Virus record (IMG/VR): IMGVR_UViG_2565956718_000004
Reading direction: 5' to 3' (one strand)
DNA: 49,168 bases
Source of the DNA: a virus
Lineage: Duplodnaviria > Heunggongvirae > Uroviricota > Caudoviricetes
In this document: piece by piece, positions 849 to 44,239 of the stretch
How the letters are laid out: each line of letters starts with the position of its first letter
How positions within the stretch are numbered: position 1 is the stretch's first letter
The notes under the pieces: model-generated
What the model was told of the DNA's origin: nothing
What the model saw: only the letters and a program-made list of their open reading frames with translations
Databases searched by the model: none
Program-made: the position numbers and the translations under genes

Positions 849-3800
849 TCAGCTAATCGTGATGCCTGTAGTGGCTTTCTTCATCACCACAACCAGCAAA
901 TCGCTGATACTTGCTGTGGGATACCAGTCATTTACCAGCCATGCTGACACCGAAAACTCCAGCGTCATGTGACCGTGACCGGCAGGCATATCAATAACGC
1001 CACTGTAAATCAGCGTATTATCCAGCGCGGTACGGTTATAAATTTCAGCACCGTTTTTCCGCACTATCAGACGGCATGAGGAGTAAATATCAGTATGCTC
1101 TCTCTCATGCTTAGCGCCACTGAATGCCACAGCCGGAATAACAATTTGCCGGTCAAACGGCTGATCGTCATAAACCCTGACGGTAATGGTCCCTGATGGC
1201 CACCGCTCCGGTGCCCGGGAGTCACGGGGGAAAGCTTTGCCCACTGTTTTAACGAGATCGCCTTCAATCTGGTTCGCGGACAGTTTTCCCAGAACCCGGC
1301 AGTTCTCGTTAATCGTGACGTTGTTGAGCGTCCCGGAGTTCGCATTCACGTTACCGCTGATATCGGCATTTTTCGCCGTCAGCCGCCCGTCCGGTGTCAG
1401 GGAAAATGCCGGAGGATTACCGCCGCTGGTAATGGTGGGGGCCGTCAGGCGCTTCAGGAACACGTCGTTCATGAATATCTGGTTGCCCTGCGCCACAAAC
1501 ATCGGCGTTTCATTCCCGTTTGCCGGGTCAATAAACGCGATACGGTTAGCGGCAACCAGGAACTGGCTCAGTTTGCCTTCCTCCGTATCCTCCATGCTGA
1601 GGCCAAGCCCCGCGACATAATGTTTGCCGTCTTTGGTCTGCTCAATTTTGACGCCCCACATGGCATTCCATTTATCGTTGGCGTCCTTCCACTCTTTCGA
1701 AAACTCCTCCAGTTTGCTGGCGTTATCTTCCGTCAGCTCAAAGTTTTCCAGCAGTTCCTTGCCGAGATGCGTTTTATTGATCAACCCTTTATAAAAATTC
1801 AGATAACCTTCCGCATCATCGCTCGCCCGACCAACGGCCTCCACAAATGCCGATTTACCAACGGTGTTCACGCTGCGGATATAAAAGTAATAATCATAAC
1901 CCGGCTTAATATTGCTACTGGCGGCTATACAGTACAGCGCCGTACCAAGATAACGCGCGCTGGTTTCAACCTGCCTGATATCCGCAATCCGCTTTTCCGA
2001 GAACCAGAACTCAAACTGTACCGTCGGGTCATAAACGGCAAGATGCGGCGTGGCGGTTATCTGAAAATAGCCCGGCGTCAGCTCAATCCGCGACGGTGCT
2101 GCCGGTGCGGCAATCCGGAAGGTGGTGGTGGCAGGTTCACCCTGCTGGCCATAGCTGTTTATCGCCCGCACCGTCAGGGTGTATTCCCCGAGCGGCAGGC
2201 CGCTGAAACGGTGCTCCGTGTCTGCGGTGATGGCGGTGGTCACCAGTCTGGCATCCGTTCCCTTACCACTGGTCAGGCGCAGACTGAAGCGCACGCCCTT
2301 CACCACCCGCGGCGTGTCCCATTTAGCCTGCGCCAGATACTGGCCGTCAGCTGCGCTCACCTCCACCGTCAGGTGCTGTACTGCCGGTGGGATGACGCTG
2401 TTCAGGGAGCCTGACTGCGGCTCAAAGCGGGCACCGTTATCCACGATGGCTTCTTTTTCCGGTACGTGCTGCACCGCCGTGATGGCAAAGGTGCCGTCCG
2501 TGTTTTCCCGGATGGAGACACAGCGGAACAGGCGACGGCGCAGTGACGGCAGGGAGAGTCCCCACACCCCGTATGTCTCCACACCATCAGGCAGGGTACT
2601 GACCTGTATCCGGTCCGGCGCGGGGTGTTCGGTGATGTCCACACTCACTGGCTTACCGCTGCCGTTAATCAGGTTCACCGTGGCGGCACCGGTCTCCGGA
2701 AGTGTCACTTCACGGTCCAGCGTCAGGGTGCGGGTGGCAGCATCAATGGACAGGACACGTCCGCCGGTCAGGGTCCCGGCATAGTCGTTATCACAGATTT
2801 CAATGATGTCACCGGGTGTGTGCCGCAGCCCCTGAGACCCGAGCGTGAAATCCACCGTCTGCGTTTCCAGCAGTTCGGTCTTTATCACCCACAGTCCGGC
2901 ACGGTGGGCCTGACCGCGGCTGGTACAGCCGAACGCGTCCATCTTCAGCAGGTTGCGTCCGTAGCGCAGTATGGCTTCCGGGTCTTCCACCAGTTCCGTG
3001 GAGGTCTGCCAGCCGTTCTGCGGGTCGGTGTAATTCACCTCCACCGCCGTGTGCCGGTCCTTCAGGGCACTGAAGCTGTAGCGGAATCCCACGCCGTTAT
3101 CATCCACCACCACATCGCTGTTGGTGTACGGCCACACCACATCCGACGGGCGGTCCTGAACGAACGTCAGCGTCTGACCGTTCCATACCGGCATACAGCG
3201 CATCGCAGAGCAGAAATCACTGAGAACGTCCCACGCCTTACGCTGTTGTGCCAGGTACGCATTAAAGGTCATCCGCGGCTCGGTCCCCCCGAAACCATCC
3301 GGGACCGTCTGATCGCAGTACTGCCCGATGGCATACAGCGCCCACTTGTCCACATCCGCCGCCTCCAGACGTTTTCCCATGCCGTAGCGCGGGTGAGTCA
3401 GCATGTCCCACAGGCACCAGGCCGGGTTGTTGCTGTATGCCGGTTTCAGACTGCCGTCCCAGATACCACTGTACGTGCGTTTTTCCGGGTCATAGTTTGA
3501 CGGCACCTGGATGATACGACCGCGGATATGGTAGTTCACCGTCATCTGCTGGCCGCCGAACTGCTCCGCATCCACCTGCAGCCCCACAATGGCCGTGTTC
3601 GGGTAGCACTGTTTCACATCGATGATTTCGGTGTATGACGACCACAGCGTCTTATTCTGCAGCTGGTCCGTGGTGCTGTCCGCCGTCTCCCTGACCATCC
3701 GGATGTTAAAGGGCCGGGGAGGCAGATTATCCAGAATCACCGAGGCCAGGAACTGTGAGGTGGTCTTGCCGTTAATGGTGACGTCCTTTTCCGTCACCCA

Positions 3801-4238
3801 GCGGCCATTACGCTGTAACTGAATCAGAATCCGGACAGAGGAAGGATTACGGTCGCCCTTTGACGTGGTCTGCACCAGTGACTGCACCCCGAAGGTAACC
3901 CGCAGGCGGTCAATGTTCGCGGACGTAATGGTGCGCGTCACCGGTTTTGCCTTCGTCACTTCCACGCCCAGTCCGGTTTCAGCTCCGGAGGACTCAAAGC
4001 CTTCCGGTGGTGTCTGCTCCTGCTCCCCGGCGCGCCAGACCGCCGTCACACCGTGTATCACGGGATTGCCGTCCGTGTCCGTCAGTGGGGTTTTGTTCAC
4101 CAGAATACTCTGCAGTCCCTTCACCGGACCTTCTATCGGTCCCTCACCAATCGCATCAATCACACTCATCATCTGCGTGGATTTGAGATTATCCTTCGCC
4201 TCACGAGGCGTGTGTGCCTTACCGCCACCTTTTCCCAT
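849..4238 (-). CDS. J: central tail fibre / host specificity protein J
   Basis: 1129-aa ORF; N-terminus [22 protein letters not shown] and most of the length are lambda-J-like; C-terminal ~150 aa diverge. Confidence 0.95.
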
Positions 4239-4443
4239 ACAGCCTTCCCCTGAATAAATTAACCGCCACTTGCCATTCCGTACAGAAGTCGGATATCCTT
4301 CGCCCGAAAAGCATGAAACACATTTCTGCCATGCTAAAGAGAAACCCCGGTATCAGCAGATACCGGGGTTTTCTTTCATGCCCACCGATAATCCTGTTGG
4401 TTAAAACCGGTAATGGCATAAAAATTCTGAATATCTTCACATT

Positions 4444-4576
4444 TTCACACACTGACTGTGGCGCTTATAATTTCGCTGCGTTAGTGTTTTTTTGCCCGAG
4501 TAACAAAAACAACTCCTTAACATTGATCTTCATTTGTCTGTCCCCGCAGCTCCGCGATCACTGCGGGATTTTTTTA
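4444..4576 (+). ncRNA. candidate small RNA unit (promoter to terminator) in the I-J intergenic insert
   Basis: TTCACA (4444-4449), 16-bp spacer, perfect TATAAT (4466-4471), then hairpin CCCGCAG/CTGCGGG plus T8 at 4543-4576; no ATG-initiated ORF between them. Confidence 0.35.
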
Positions 4577-4580
4577 TGTT

Positions 4581-5261
4581 TTATCCCTGTCGCCCGATAA
4601 CCACGACCGTTCCGCCCCCGCCTTCATCACGGGTGCTGATGTCCTGGGATATACGGCGGGAGCCAACCAGCATTTCCCCGTAAGGCACCGGCATCGGGTT
4701 CCCCTGGGCAATCATGTTATCCAGCGAGGAAAAGTACGTGTTCTGTCTGCCGTTATCCGTTGCGCGGTAATCCGGTGTTTTTGCCTTCGGGGCCAGCATC
4801 TGGGCCACACCGCCCAGAATCATGCTGGCTCCAAGTGAAAACAGCATCGTGGTGGCAGAAAAACCACCGGCTGCCAGGGCTGAACCCCATAACGCCATTG
4901 ATGCCCCGGCAGTGAAGAAAGAGCCCACGATGGCTGCCGCCCCCAGCACAATCTGCAGTCCACCCTTTCCGGCCCCGGCCAGTCGCGGCACAATATGGAT
5001 GACCGTTCCCTCACCCAGCTGTTCGTGAAGACGGGCGTACACCGCCTCCGGTGCCGTGTCATAACCGGCAATACGTATCTGGTACCAGCCTTCGTTCATC
5101 TGACGGCGAAAGCCCGGCACCTGTAACGACAGCGCCCGGATGGCTTCCGCTGCCGTGTTCACATACAGGCTGAGGCGGCGGCCAAATCGTTGTAAATCCC
5201 CGTGAAGGCAGATGCGTGCCAGTGGCGGTGACGCCAGACAGAATGCGTTCGTCGTTGCCAT
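4581..5261 (-). CDS. I: tail assembly protein I
   Basis: 226-aa ORF; N-terminus MATTNAFCLASPPLARICLHGDLQRFGRR and hydrophobic C-terminal half match lambda I. Confidence 0.9.
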   Translation of the reverse strand: MATTNAFCLASPPLARICLHGDLQRFGRRLSLYVNTAAEAIRALSLQVPGFRRQMNEGWYQIRIAGYDTAPEAVYARLHEQLGEGTVIHIVPRLAGAGKGGLQIVLGAAAIVGSFFTAGASMALWGSALAAGGFSATTMLFSLGASMILGGVAQMLAPKAKTPDYRATDNGRQNTYFSSLDNMIAQGNPMPVPYGEMLVGSRRISQDISTRDEGGGGTVVVIGRQG

Positions 5262-5902
5262 TTTTCGGAATACCTCTCCCGTTTACTCAGTTGTTCAGGC
5301 AGATGGTGAAGCAGCTCACCGTTGCCGCAGTAAATGGCGGCATGGTTCGGTACCGAAGCACCAAAGCAGCACAGCAGAATATCGCCCGCCTGTGCAGAGG
5401 ACAGGGGCACCCGGTAAAAGCCGGTGACCGCCATATTGTCCAGGTACAGGTTCTGGCCGTTGCGCCACCAGTCATCCTCGCGATGAAAATCCGGCATATC
5501 AATTCCCGCCAGATGGTATGCATCCCGGAACAGCGTGTAACAGTCCGTCACCCCGTGCTCAAAGCGCCGTCCTGTCAGATGTGGCACACAGCGGAATTTA
5601 TGAATTTCCCCCCGGCAGACCAGCCACCAGGGCAGTGCGCTTTTTATCTGCAGCCGCCGGTCAGCCTCGCTCAGCCAGGGCAGCTCACCGGGATGACTGT
5701 GGACCAGTGCCACAATCTCCCCCTGCATCTCTGCCCGCAGCCAGTCTTCCGGTGCGATACGAAAATACGCCTCCGGCTCTGCGGAAATATTCACACAAGG
5801 GATATACCGCTCCCCCTCCGGCGTGCTTATCACGAAGCCGCACGACTCCGCAGGCGCACACCGCCGGGCATGCGCCAGAATCGCTGATTCAGTCTGTGTC
5901 AT
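5159..5902 (-). CDS. K: tail tip assembly protein K (JAMM/MPN-like HSHP motif plus NlpC/P60-like Cys/His)
   Basis: Start set at internal MTQTESAIL directly after the L stop; longer track ORF is a run-on; 3' end overlaps I by ~100 nt, so boundaries are uncertain. Confidence 0.75.
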   Translation of the reverse strand: MTQTESAILAHARRCAPAESCGFVISTPEGERYIPCVNISAEPEAYFRIAPEDWLRAEMQGEIVALVHSHPGELPWLSEADRRLQIKSALPWWLVCRGEIHKFRCVPHLTGRRFEHGVTDCYTLFRDAYHLAGIDMPDFHREDDWWRNGQNLYLDNMAVTGFYRVPLSSAQAGDILLCCFGASVPNHAAIYCGNGELLHHLPEQLSKRERYSEKWQRRTHSVWRHRHWHASAFTGIYNDLAAASACM

Positions 5903-26395: not shown

Positions 26396-26615
26396 CAATA
26401 TAAACAGCCCCTCCGGAGAGGGGCTGGAGAGTGGCGCTATGTGCCATTGCATGGTGCCGGGTGCCTCCCGGTGAATTCAGTACCAGCACCTGAATCCGCG
26501 ATTATCCCATATACCTACTCGCTGATTACCCCTCCGCACAGGGGGATTCACCATGCGAAATTTTTTAACAAACTTCCCGCCGGCCAGACAATAATCGCCA
26601 GCCTGAATTATGAGC
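26396..26615. repeat. structured repeat unit, copy 1 (candidate ncRNA element)
   Basis: Starts with hairpin AGCCCCTC-CGGA-GAGGGGCT; shares conserved blocks with copy 2 while paired stems flank unrelated loops. Confidence 0.6.
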
Positions 26616-26868
26616 AACGTGGCATTTTACGGGAAAACTGTTTTCTGCAGTAAAAAGGCCCGCCGGAGCGAGCCTGGAAGGATAGCGGTCATGTGATGCC
26701 GGTTTCCCGGTAACTCAGCATCGGTATCTGAGTCAACGTTTTCTCTACTGGGTCATTTCCGATACGTTCCGCCTTCCGGCAGACTTTCATCACGTCAGAA
26801 AATATAGCACCCTGAGTAACAGGACAGTACTCAGAATTCAGGAAACTGTGACACATCCTGCACAGAAA

Positions 26869-27083
26869 AGCCCCTCCGGAGAGGGGCTGAAGTATAGCCT
26901 AATTTCTGTCTGTCGCATGGTGCCAGGGGCCTCCCGGTAAATTCAGCCTGTCTACTGAATTTGCATGTTCTCTGGATCATACACTTTGCCAGATGCCCCG
27001 CCGCTGAGGGGGATTCACCATGCGATGTAATTTTTAACAAATTCTCCGGCAGCCAGACAATCATCAAGCTGTGGAATTGTGAG
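26869..27083. repeat. structured repeat unit, copy 2 (candidate ncRNA element)
   Basis: Same block structure as copy 1; on the minus strand the 5' hairpin is followed by TTTTCTGTG, i.e. terminator-like. Confidence 0.6.
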
Positions 27084-27316: not shown

Positions 27317-27393
27317 TGGACCGCCATCGGGGACTTGAACCCCGCGCAGCCAGCTTCGAAGGCTGGCGCTCTATCCCGATGAGCTAATGGCGG
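27317..27393 (-). tRNA. tRNA-Arg (anticodon UCG)
   Basis: 77-nt cloverleaf ending CCA: acceptor CCGCCAT/ATGGCGG, D-arm GCTC..GAGC, anticodon stem CCAGC/GCTGG with loop CTTCGAA, T-arm CGGGG-TTCAAGT-CCCCG. Confidence 0.8.
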
Positions 27394-27400
27394 TATGTGA

Positions 27401-27476
27401 TGGTGGCCCTTGCTGGATTTGAACCAGCGACCTGGCGATTATGAGTCGCTCGCTCTCACCACTGAGCTAAAGGGCC
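27401..27476 (-). tRNA. tRNA-Ile2 (anticodon CAU, lysidine type; ileX/ileZ-like)
   Basis: 76-nt sequence GGCCCTTTAGCTCAGTGGTGAGAGCGAGCGACTCATAATCGCCAGGTCGCTGGTTCAAATCCAGCAAGGGCCACCA, close to E. coli ileX. Confidence 0.85.
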
Positions 27477-31851: not shown

Positions 31852-32007
31852 TTACTCCTCAGGTTCGTAAGCTGTGAAGACAGCGACCTCCGTCTGGCCG
31901 GTTCGGATTCGTACCTCGCAGAGGTCTTTCCTCGTTACCAGTGCCGTCACTATGACGGTTAAACAGATGACGATCAGGGCGATTAACATCGCCTTTTGCT
32001 GCTTCAT
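31852..32007 (-). CDS. hok: Hok/Gef family type I toxin
   Basis: 51-aa MKQQKAMLIALIVICLTVIVTALVTRKDLCEVRIRTGQTEVAVFTAYEPEE, the classic Hok sequence pattern. Confidence 0.85.
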   Translation of the reverse strand: MKQQKAMLIALIVICLTVIVTALVTRKDLCEVRIRTGQTEVAVFTAYEPEE

Positions 32008-32160
32008 AGCCTGCTTCTCCTTGACCTTTCGGTCCGTAAGAGGCTAATCTCTATGTGTCGCATAGATATGGCCTCAGATTAATGTTAAGCGTCTTGCAGG
32101 ACGCGTAATGTTAACTGGGGCTTTTCTCTATCTGCCTTTTGGTGTTCATGCCTGAGACAG
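32008..32160. other. hok mRNA leader / expected mok-sok regulatory region
   Basis: Structured region immediately upstream of hok where hok/sok loci carry the overlapping mok frame and antisense Sok RNA; exact sok ends not resolved. Confidence 0.4.
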
Positions 32161-32265
32161 ATAGCCTCAAGCACCCGCAGTCATTCTACTTAACTAAGAT
32201 TTCCCCGCAAACCGTTTTTGTCCGGCACAGTAAATATCCAACTAAACCAATGGCGTTCGCTGTAT

Positions 32266-43366: not shown

Positions 43367-44239
43367 TTCACCCTCCTGAGGGTTGGTGATTAAGGAGTTC
43401 TCCACGGGTGAGGTGGAGTGCGTGCGCCGGACACGGGTGAGCATCCGGCACTGACAGTTTACTGAAAGGATATTTCCCTGAAAAGTCAGACCATAACGCG
43501 AAAGCGCTCGGTGAGGTAGCTGGTTCATAGATAGCCTGTCGTTAAATTTTCGTCGACCGTGCGCTTCCGGTTGTGGCAATCCGCGAAATGGCGCGGCGGT
43601 AAGTATGGCGGGGTTATTCCTTCCCCCGTTGAGGACACCGGGTTGTCAGGTTGACCATACGCTTAAGTGACAACTCCGCTGCAACGCCCTCTGTTATCAA
43701 TTTTCTGGTGACTTTTGGCGGTATCAGTTCTACTCCGTGACTGCTCTGCCGCCCTTTTTAAAGTGAATTTTGTGATGCGGTGAATGCGGCTCAGCGCACG
43801 CGGAACAGTTAAAACAAGCGGTCTTTTACGGGCGTAACGGGAATGCTCTGTATCCGACGTTAATTGTTAACTGGTTAACGTCACCTGGAGGCACCAGGCA
43901 CCGCATCAACAAAGTTCACTTCGGTGATGAAAGGTAGAGAAAATGTTGAATGTAGCTATTGAAAACCAGAACGGGTGGAATTATAGTGCACCTGCACCTC
44001 ATAAAACGGGTGCCGGGCGTGGAAACCCGAAATCATTCACGGCGCATAACCGCGCTCAGGCGGTTTTTTTATGCGTTAAGCACAGCCACATTCGCATTAT
44101 GGTGGGGCGTGCAGGGCAGCCGCAAGGCTGGCCGGGTTCCGTGATGACCGGTATTTCCACCCCTGTACGTCTCACCACCCTTATGGTCGTGGAAAACCTC
44201 GGTGGTGAGTTAATCAAATTCATCGCGGAGGCTGCCATC

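Follow-up and report, generated by a model that had tools for sequence, protein, structure and literature searches.

The stretch of DNA analysed here, referred to as the window, comprises 49,168 nucleotides of a virus of the Caudoviricetes (IMG/VR record IMGVR_UViG_2565956718_000004). On its minus strand it carries two neighbouring tail genes, the host-specificity or tail tip gene J and the tail tip assembly gene I, which are separated by a gap of 342 bp (4239-4580, from the start of J to the stop codon of I). In phage ASU11, which is 100% identical in this region, the products of these two genes are named host specificity protein J and tail tip assembly protein I, and the annotation of I also agrees with RefSeq homologues. 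The genes and the features of the gap are the following.

849-4238, minus strand: host-specificity or tail tip gene J (open reading frame; ATG at 4238-4236)
4239-4417, no strand assigned: left module, made up of the J leader and an element of 148 nt with strong predicted structure
4342-4371, no strand assigned: two-way terminator-like hairpin with arms AAACCCCGGTATC/GATACCGGGGTTT and a loop of 4 nt, bordered by a U-rich run on either side
4418-4444, plus strand: upstream block, A/T-rich ATAAAAATT followed by TTCTGAAnnTCTTCACATTT at 4425-4444
4444-4471, plus strand: predicted sigma-70 promoter of pasB (-35 TTCACA at 4444-4449, 16-nt spacer, -10 TATAAT at 4466-4471)
4478-4575, plus strand: predicted primary PasB transcript, 98 nt if it starts 7 nt after the -10 hexamer
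4511-4541, plus strand: candidate seed (target-pairing) region, with AACUCCUU at 4511-4518, GAUCUUCAU at 4525-4533 and the allelic position 4519
4543-4575, plus strand: predicted intrinsic terminator and Hfq-binding 3' end (CCCGCAG 4543-4549, CTGCGGG 4561-4567, 11-nt loop, U7 4569-4575)
4581-5261, minus strand: tail tip assembly gene I (open reading frame; stop codon at 4581-4583)

The original prediction had described an I-J gap of about 340 bp without a convincing open reading frame, and this description was borne out. The 77-aa (minus strand), 128-aa (plus strand) and 44-aa (plus strand) frames of the gap gave no Pfam match and PHROG matches only at E > 0.2, and RefSeq leaves the gap without annotation in about 1,600 E. 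coli records. A small or decayed protein-coding gene was considered, given that hypothetical proteins are placed here in some GenBank phage entries, with a minus-strand frame of 66/77 aa (a hypothetical protein in ASU11) and a minus-strand frame of 22 aa (MKINVKELF...), whose start lies at the complement of the candidate seed, as the candidates; a minus-strand ATG at 4533 has GGGGA 7 nt upstream. However, this ATG is missing in the UID2309, Stx2c and CFT073/ST131-type alleles, indels shift the frame after about nine codons where the ATG is kept, and the 77-aa frame crosses the 13-bp hairpin and overlaps the start of J. With no support from Pfam or PHROG and no reading frame kept across alleles, a coding gap was rejected and is regarded by us as extremely improbable. 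For a decayed protein-coding gene, the outcome that the original prediction had set against its own proposal, Pfam, PHROG and RefSeq annotation gave no support.

On the plus strand, antisense to the tail operon, the proposed promoter of TTCACA, a 16-bp spacer and TATAAT is present and matches the sigma-70 consensus at 11 of 12 positions. It is the sole site with at least 11/12 matches on both strands of the whole 49-kb window, while 0.33 ± 0.55 such sites are expected from first-order Markov simulations, and on the minus strand of the gap no promoter reaches 9/12. The proposed terminator hairpin CCCGCAG/CTGCGGG stands as well, although the T8 ascribed to it is in fact a run of T7 (4569-4575) that follows one A; its end at 4575 lies 5 nt before the stop codon of I. 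A transcript of about 100 nt without an ATG had been forecast, and the predicted 98-nt RNA, read directly from G4478 to 4575, contains no ATG. The right half of the gap thus carries, by sequence, its own promoter and a 7-bp GC-rich stem followed by U7, for a U-tract threshold of at least 4.

Such consensus scans are no evidence on their own, and terminator-like sites in 3200-5600 are not above the shuffled expectation (2 seen, 2.2 expected), so that the two signals might be chance matches, or terminators insulating the late operon, with no discrete RNA between them. This explanation has hardly any probability in our judgement, given that the promoter is the only match of its quality in 49 kb, that alleles whose RNA bodies diverge to 74% identity still keep the terminator stem and the key -10 positions, and that in two pathotypes the RNA of homologous loci was detected on Northern blots and through ligation or crosslinking on Hfq; the published blots of the near-identical E2348/69 copy already contradict it. 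Across alleles the -10 hexamer reads TATAAT, GATAAT, AATAAT or TATCAT, its A/T positions 2, 3, 5 and 6 being unchanged. The terminator stem is unchanged in 18 alleles, and because it hardly varies a covariation test has little power; covariation counts were moreover confused by misaligned paralogues, leaving one clean compensatory allele (CCCACAG/CTGTGGG in L090 from IMG/VR, among the matches listed).

Immediately upstream of the promoter, the block 4418-4444 is invariant in 20 I-J gaps whose overall identity ranges from 74 to 100%, and its family consensus is ATAAAAWTTCTGAAnnTCTTCACATTT. Its sequence suggests that the block is probably an UP element and/or a regulator site. Inspected by eye for regulator sites, it shows no sigma-54, FNR, IHF or extended -10 match. 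A CRP site was rejected, since TCTGA-N6-TCACA (4426-4441) matches at 9/10 positions but is centred at about -44.5, which is no canonical class I or class II position, and a LexA site was rejected because CTG-N10-CAT lacks the essential final G.

In order to place the cassette among known RNAs, a comparison with Rfam or by BLASTN had been suggested. In Rfam 15 no family reaches its gathering score in 3800-5000 (best SSRC34_2, 27.3 bits against 48), whereas sequence comparison and the literature lead to PasB, which is evidently absent from Rfam 15. PasB is one of five prophage sRNAs found by RIL-seq in enteropathogenic E. coli (EPEC) E2348/69 (Pearl Mizrahi et al., 2021, PMC8550237). It is an RNA of 83 nt (E2348CN_0006; NC_011601, 1466343-1466261, minus strand) encoded in prophage PP6 between E2348C_1436 and E2348C_1437 (PMC8550237, including its Table S6). 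Window positions 4493-4575 are identical to it at 82 of 83 nucleotides, and the sole mismatch, at PasB position 27, is A4519 in the window and C in E2348/69. The Northern probe for PasB, AATCCCGCAGTGATCGCGGAGCT (PMC8550237), matches the window at 4548-4570 on the minus strand with zero mismatches, and therefore detects a plus-strand RNA. Synteny is alike, as PasB of E2348/69 lies between genes annotated as 'tail assembly protein' and 'gpJ' and is antisense to both. The two loci share the I-J slot, strand, promoter and terminator; they differ in that the E2348/69 gap has an unrelated segment of about 80 bp where the window has its 179-bp left module.

In E2348/69, PasB gave a Northern band of the predicted size, about 83 nt, and its stability was Hfq-dependent, with log2 fold changes in the delta-hfq mutant relative to the wild type of -6.79 (padj 2e-40) under activating and -2.39 under non-activating conditions, and it was more abundant in the non-activating condition (overnight static LB, 37 °C) than in DMEM (PMC8550237). 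The original proposal of a moron-type small RNA, active in the lysogen and antisense to the tail genes, is matched by PasB through the 82/83 identity and the exact probe match, with expression known from the E2348/69 homologue: the extra DNA lies between two genes of an operon and has its own promoter and terminator. The promoter-terminator unit between I and J is thus, judged by its sequence, a copy of the already known pasB, and positions 4418-4580 very probably represent the pasB gene of a PPompW-type lambdoid prophage, a self-contained sRNA cassette between I and J that is antisense to the late operon. According to a recent preprint, PasB and PasB-2 differ by one nucleotide at position 27, and the sequence of E2348/69 is not the commonest variant (Zhu, Shabalina & Storz, 2026, bioRxiv 10.64898/2026.05.13.724894). 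Because the difference found here falls at this very position and the E2348/69 variant is not the commonest, the allele of the window is probably PasB-2.

The two ends of the RNA agree unequally with the published coordinates. At the 3' end, RIL-seq fragments of PasB terminate at 1466259-61, where the U-run ends; in the window this is position 4575. At the 5' end, a start near 4478 had been anticipated and fits the conserved -10, which predicts 4477-4479, but it does not fit the published 5' end, which corresponds to 4493, the end of a U7 run, and which rests on RNA-seq coverage and an 'approximate' Northern size. For the allele of E. coli O157:H7 Sakai, the promoter-derived length is 91 nt as compared to about 85 nt observed. 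The discrepancy may stem from an imprecise coverage-based end or from trimming of the RNA within the U-run; a second promoter for a start at 4493 was rejected, since TAGTGT (4482-4487) matches at only 3/6 positions and has no -35.

A single 340-bp insert carrying the promoter and the terminators had been envisaged. The extra DNA is there, but it consists of two modules with a boundary at 4417/4418, of which the right one (4418-4580) is the sRNA unit and the left one (4239-4417) is separate. The boundary is evident from phages with short gaps of about 240 bp, which align to the window up to 4238 and again from 4415-4418 onward and which contain an unrelated segment of about 80 bp instead of the left module (breakpoints 4238/4239 and 4414-4417/4418). 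The left module occurs in 1446 E. coli genomes and in 13 records of phages. Of 1451 E. coli records, 1442 match it at 99% identity or more, and it is identical at all 179 positions even beside PasB bodies of 79% identity. Its 148-nt element yields fold z-scores of -5 to -6 on both strands, and a closing helix (4272-4280 with 4407-4416) encloses a 13-bp hairpin at 4342-4371 and a smaller hairpin. The former corresponds to the second hairpin with flanking T-runs noted earlier: its perfect 13-bp arms span 4342-4354 and 4359-4371, with AAAGAGAAA and TTTTCTTTC as the flanking sequences, so that from its sequence it looks like a two-way intrinsic terminator.

A hairpin on the sense strand upstream of J is not peculiar to the window. 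Short-gap phages carry CAGGCAYCC...GGRTGCCTG followed by TTGTTTTT on the sense strand at the same position, with one compensatory change of C-G to T-A and two sequences that break this pair. The statement that J directly follows I in phage lambda proved wrong, as a 60-bp gap is present there (NC_001416, 15445-15504) with a hairpin of its own, CCGCCcgcaGGCGG followed by TTTTGTCATTT, on the sense strand. This GC-rich hairpin with its U-run just upstream of J matches 4342-4371 and the short-gap hairpin in position, although it has no sequence similarity to that of the window and lambda has no PasB cassette. We know of no function assigned to the lambda I-J hairpin. Three different sense-strand hairpins at one position indicate that this junction has long had a hairpin upstream of J; the PasB cassette is located between that hairpin and I.

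The left module could be a terminator that keeps transcription not subject to antitermination, including transcription through the cassette, out of J, or it could be an mRNA-stabilising or regulatory leader. No diverged relatives were found by distant BLAST searches and no family match in Rfam, Pfam or PHROG. A mobile element or a wider family was rejected, as a scan for the hairpin pattern in 185,579 species genomes gave only Escherichia albertii besides palindromes that occur by chance in unrelated phyla; a second sRNA was likewise rejected, the promoter-like site on the plus strand at 4270-4299 (9/12) being too weak.

The right module (4418-4580) is widespread. By megablast it was found in 1611 of 5426 complete E. 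coli genomes (about 30%) and by blastn in 147 phage records, including Stx1a, Stx2a and Stx2c phages, VT1-Sakai, BP-4795 and phage 2851, and throughout these records (over 1,600 from E. coli, 147 from phages) its place is always the I-J slot. Alignments were made from 20 I-J gaps and from 18-30 RNA regions, and a search of IMG/VR anchored on the invariant upstream block yielded at least 120 contigs with 60 distinct alleles among the matches listed. Features common to the family are GTGGC at 4458-4462, a -10 that reads nATnAT, GCGTTA where transcription is predicted to begin, a body with a U-run followed by an A-rich ARN-like run and the motifs AAYUCC and (U/G)AUCUUC, and a terminator with the stem CCCGCAG/CTGCGGG, a variable loop and a U-run; the RNAalifold consensus structure comprises the terminator only. 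The distribution of the variation becomes clear when the window is compared segment by segment with the long-gap loci of CFT073, two other E. coli and E. albertii:

J 5' end: 139/139 identical to the window
Left module: 179/179
pasB promoter: 56-58/60
RNA body: 77/98

The RNA body is the variable part within a near-identical neighbourhood. In their preprint, Zhu et al. call PasB the least diverse Pas sRNA (bioRxiv 10.64898/2026.05.13.724894); as described there, their primary search used a word size of 28 and would therefore miss alleles of 74-82% identity.

Among such divergent alleles are, as we infer, three RNAs already described in E. coli O157:H7 Sakai. EcOnc22 (prophage Sp15), EcOnc23 (Sp14) and EcOnc24 (Sp11) are mutual homologues on the plus strand identified by Hfq-CRAC, and EcOnc22 gave a Northern band of about 85 nt that was destabilised in a delta-hfq strain (Tree et al., 2014, PMC4104026, including its Table S2). 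The coordinates of all three fall inside I-J gaps of the current Sakai record, and these gaps hold mutually identical PasB-like cassettes about 79% identical to the window. The coincidence of the peaks with the PasB homologue appears only after a correction between the older and the current record of about +128 to +137, which was estimated from the single landmark AgvB (AgvB1 at 1941783-1941835 in the paper, Rfam match at 1941920-1941981 in the current record); after this correction the EcOnc23 peak falls at 572-642 of the Sakai locus L021, where the PasB homologue occupies about 568/583-658. The Sakai cassettes to which the Hfq-bound EcOnc22-24 would belong have in common with the window the I-J slot, the strand, the invariant upstream block, a -10 of the family type (AATAAT), the motifs AACUCC and UUAAUCUUCAU and the identical terminator stem, and they differ by a cassette identity of about 74-79% and by a different 5' third. 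The 2021 table lists homologues in enterohaemorrhagic E. coli (EHEC) for PasA and PasD and none for PasB (PMC8550237), a 2021 review states the target of EcOnc22 as unknown, and neither the table nor the review makes the link between PasB and EcOnc22-24.

Other prophage sRNAs of EHEC are similar in kind. AgvB, AsxR and HnrS (EcOnc10-12) are likewise prophage-encoded, Hfq-associated, short, intrinsically terminated and expressed in the lysogen, and their alleles also combine a conserved part, at the 3' end, with a variable 5' part; they differ in that they are 51-66 nt long, lie downstream of PR' or at a late-gene moron site near Q and the lysis genes, and are unrelated to PasB in sequence. For the AgvB/AsxR class, no Rfam match was obtained in the gap, and its location and length (51-60 nt, PR' site, conserved 3' 42 nt) do not fit. 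HnrS (EcOnc10-12 in Sp9, Sp10 and Sp12), svsR (3' end of cI) and EvrS (adjoining z1789 in CP-933N) were rejected as they occupy different loci.

To be found as the 3' partner of a ligated chimera is a signature of a trans-acting base-pairing sRNA. An ARN-type run together with a GC-rich terminator hairpin and U7 is the usual Hfq-binding architecture. In the body of PasB, both seed motifs are conserved across alleles and mostly unpaired in partition-function folds, in which the terminator stem is paired, and the body as a whole is largely unstructured and A/U-rich, with AAAAACAAC as the ARN-type run. PasB of E2348/69 engaged in about 37 RIL-seq interactions, nearly always as the second RNA (3' partner) of the chimera, with a U-tract of 7 (PMC8550237). 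An unstructured seed, a poly-U terminator and, from the homologue, many Hfq partners place the RNA among the Hfq-dependent trans-acting sRNAs. Its main partners in E2348/69 under the non-activating condition were:

E2348C_2648: 71 chimeras, 3 libraries
napF 5'UTR: 70 chimeras, 3 libraries (3/3)
map: 67 chimeras, 2 libraries
yhhX: 57 chimeras, 2 libraries
nlpD IGR: 56 chimeras, 1 library
hflX: 55 chimeras, 2 libraries
fabR: 50 chimeras, 2 libraries

About 25 more partners include bfpB, cesD2, espC, the 5'UTRs of tolC and raiA, ftsZ, ffh and rplX (PMC8550237). Five top partner regions were scanned in windows for duplexes with E2348/69 PasB, with shuffled PasB as the control, and the best duplexes with all five use nucleotides 31-70 of the predicted primary transcript, which correspond to window positions 4508-4547. 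Their energies were:

napF: -25.8 kcal/mol (shuffled -18.9 ± 1.9)
yhhX: -23.6 kcal/mol (shuffled -20.2 ± 1.9)
map: -21.0 kcal/mol (shuffled -17.9 ± 1.5)
hflX: -18.8 kcal/mol (shuffled -20.4 ± 3.4)
E2348C_2648: -18.2 kcal/mol (shuffled -18.4 ± 1.9)

Only napF clearly outperforms the shuffled controls. The advantage of yhhX and map is marginal, at about 2 sd, and the duplexes of hflX and E2348C_2648 are indistinguishable from those of shuffled PasB. For the E2348/69 allele, the predicted napF duplex comprises 16 consecutive pairs, CUUCACAUUGAUCUUC with GAAGGUCAAUGUGAAG, at -26.2 kcal/mol and spans the Shine-Dalgarno sequence GAAGG, the GUG start and codon 2. In the window, A4519 faces a G, so that one pair is lost and a duplex of 12+3 pairs at -19.8 kcal/mol is predicted. 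All alleles have an invariant AAUCUUCA that can pair with UGAAGAUU at the start of napF, and in the more divergent alleles the predicted pairing there is between the invariant UUAAUCUUCA and UGAAGAUUGA. Of 5426 E. coli genomes, 5412 have the 37-nt napF site at 100% identity, and it is therefore available in any host; with the site the same in so many genomes, co-variation of PasB position 27 with it was rejected. Duplex scans of the whole window for targets of PasB in the prophage itself gave only its own antisense and long looped artefacts.

From these observations a mechanism can be proposed in which PasB made in the lysogen would use 4511-4541 to pair with host and accessory mRNAs at their ribosome-binding regions and would repress their translation. 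In the case of napF, which is the leader gene of the operon for periplasmic nitrate reductase, the seed would occlude the ribosome-binding site and translation would be repressed. On the strength of the RIL-seq data for the homologue and of the complementarity, we infer that translational repression of napF is the best-supported single mechanistic prediction.

PasB might instead act mainly in cis, as an antisense RNA against the late tail-operon mRNA. In the lysogen, late transcripts that leak through or come in would then be cut by RNase III or terminated between I and J under its influence, so that expression of J would be limited or superinfecting phages with the same cassette would be hindered, and conversely the late mRNA would sponge PasB on induction. 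It is evident that every late transcript running from I to J holds a perfect complement of PasB, that the RNA is confined to the opposite strand of the I-J intercistronic region and stops 5 nt short of the I stop codon, that the cassette is confined to this slot in all E. coli and phage records mentioned above, and that a sense-strand terminator-like hairpin always lies between it and J. However, the RNA has no overlap with coding sequence, as it ends at 4575 with the I stop at 4581-4583 and the J start at 4238, and an overlap with a gene or its start, by which the cis-antisense class is defined, is thus not seen; the ribosome-binding site of J is 240-340 nt away. Moreover, RIL-seq of the homologue revealed many trans partners and Hfq dependence, and the much faster divergence of the RNA body compared with its flanks is neither required nor explained by a purely cis-antisense role. 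A mainly cis-acting PasB is therefore considered quite improbable, and a cis role may be an addition to, rather than an alternative to, the trans role.

Taking PasB as a trans-acting prophage sRNA, a wider and speculative reading can be formulated, which in its entirety we regard as unlikely rather than likely. The I-J slot would be a dedicated hypervariable sRNA locus of lambdoid phages, in which an invariant upstream element, providing a common regulatory input, and an invariant terminator frame bodies that are exchanged or diversified faster than the tail genes, tandem two-gene versions included. Such a locus would unite PasB, EcOnc22-24 and further alleles with an AAUCUUC seed aimed at the conserved napF start, and the 179-bp left module would be an independent structured RNA controlling J.

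The logic of a promoter and a terminator alone, applied without a database, predicted a real and experimentally validated prophage sRNA, whose type of cassette is carried by about 30% of complete E. coli genomes. Beyond what was known of PasB, the analysis adds its proposed identity with EcOnc22-24, a picture of how widely and in what pattern the alleles vary, the prediction for napF and the setting apart of the invariant left module, and these additions leave the classification of the feature as pasB unchanged. If the reading of a hypervariable locus were true, nitrate respiration in the periplasm would be tuned by prophages in many pathotypes of E. coli.

A complete lambdoid prophage, with many known RNA genes, makes up the window. 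Counting only matches above Rfam gathering scores, the families STnc100 (two copies), tRNA (two copies), sok, DicF, IsrK and C4 antisense RNA were found; STnc100 is reported to be related to PasD (Zhu et al., bioRxiv 10.64898/2026.05.13.724894).

Intervals of Rfam RNA genes in the window
26396-26584, minus strand, Rfam RNA gene
26860-27053, minus strand, Rfam RNA gene
27320-27476, minus strand, Rfam RNA gene
32005-32176, minus strand, Rfam RNA gene
43703-43754, plus strand, Rfam RNA gene
43994-44070, plus strand, Rfam RNA gene
44095-44182, plus strand, Rfam RNA gene

Within the invariant block upstream of pasB, TCTGA-N6-TCACA (4426-4441) matches the CRP core at 9 of 10 positions. The PasB homologue of E2348/69 is more abundant in overnight LB cultures than in glucose-rich DMEM (PMC8550237). 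The centre of this CRP-like site falls at about -44.5, a non-canonical position for activation, so no conclusion on CRP is drawn. In the start region of napF from E2348/69 (record 2431239-2431309), two similar sites, GAAGGUCAAUG and GAAGAUUGAUG, are present and pairing with PasB is predicted to be possible in two registers. The 37-nt pairing site is 100% identical in 5412 of 5426 E. coli genomes, but identity of at least 99% across the 71-nt leader is reached in no more than 6. Within the leader, E2348/69 thus departs from nearly every other E. coli genome at one or more positions beyond the pairing site.

A GC-rich hairpin followed by a U-run lies on the sense strand immediately upstream of J in lambda (within NC_001416 15445-15504) and in all short-gap relatives, mid-way in the Q-antiterminated late operon. 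To our knowledge, no function has been assigned to it.

Of 1451 E. coli records, 1442 match the 179-bp left module (4239-4417) at 99% identity or more. The module folds very strongly on either strand (z about -5 to -6), and its predicted closing helix pairs 4272-4280 with 4407-4416. In several GenBank phage records, small hypothetical proteins are called across the PasB cassette or this module. The ORFs lack conservation from allele to allele, and the calls are probably mis-annotations.

Small ORFs annotated in GenBank
Phage ASU11 (L001), 2981-3181, hypothetical protein ASU11_gp9c
Record L002, 3020-3118, hypothetical protein
Record L010, 548-700, hypothetical protein

Some IMG/VR phage contigs (L085, L140, L160 and L126) carry two tandem sRNA cassettes in the I-J slot, each with its own invariant upstream block, the two matches being separated by 179 bp in L085 and by 471 bp in L126. 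The J-proximal cassette is a paralogue that retains AACUCCUUAAGG and differs in body and terminator (CTCCCG...CGGGAG). In the IMG/VR contig L131, an IS3-family-like transposase ORF (MTKNTRFSPEVRQRAV...) directly follows the invariant promoter block; the sRNA cassette of this phage is broken by an insertion sequence.

Comparison with four records showed that the PasB body (4478-4575) is the most divergent stretch amid near-identical surroundings.

Identity to the window in L005, L006, L020 and L051
I 3' end, 117/120
Left module, 179/179
pasB promoter, 56-58/60
PasB RNA body, 77/98
J 5' end, 139/139

The left module is unchanged even beside a body of just 79% identity. Such divergence between near-identical flanks suggests that the sRNA is subject to cassette exchange or diversifying selection.
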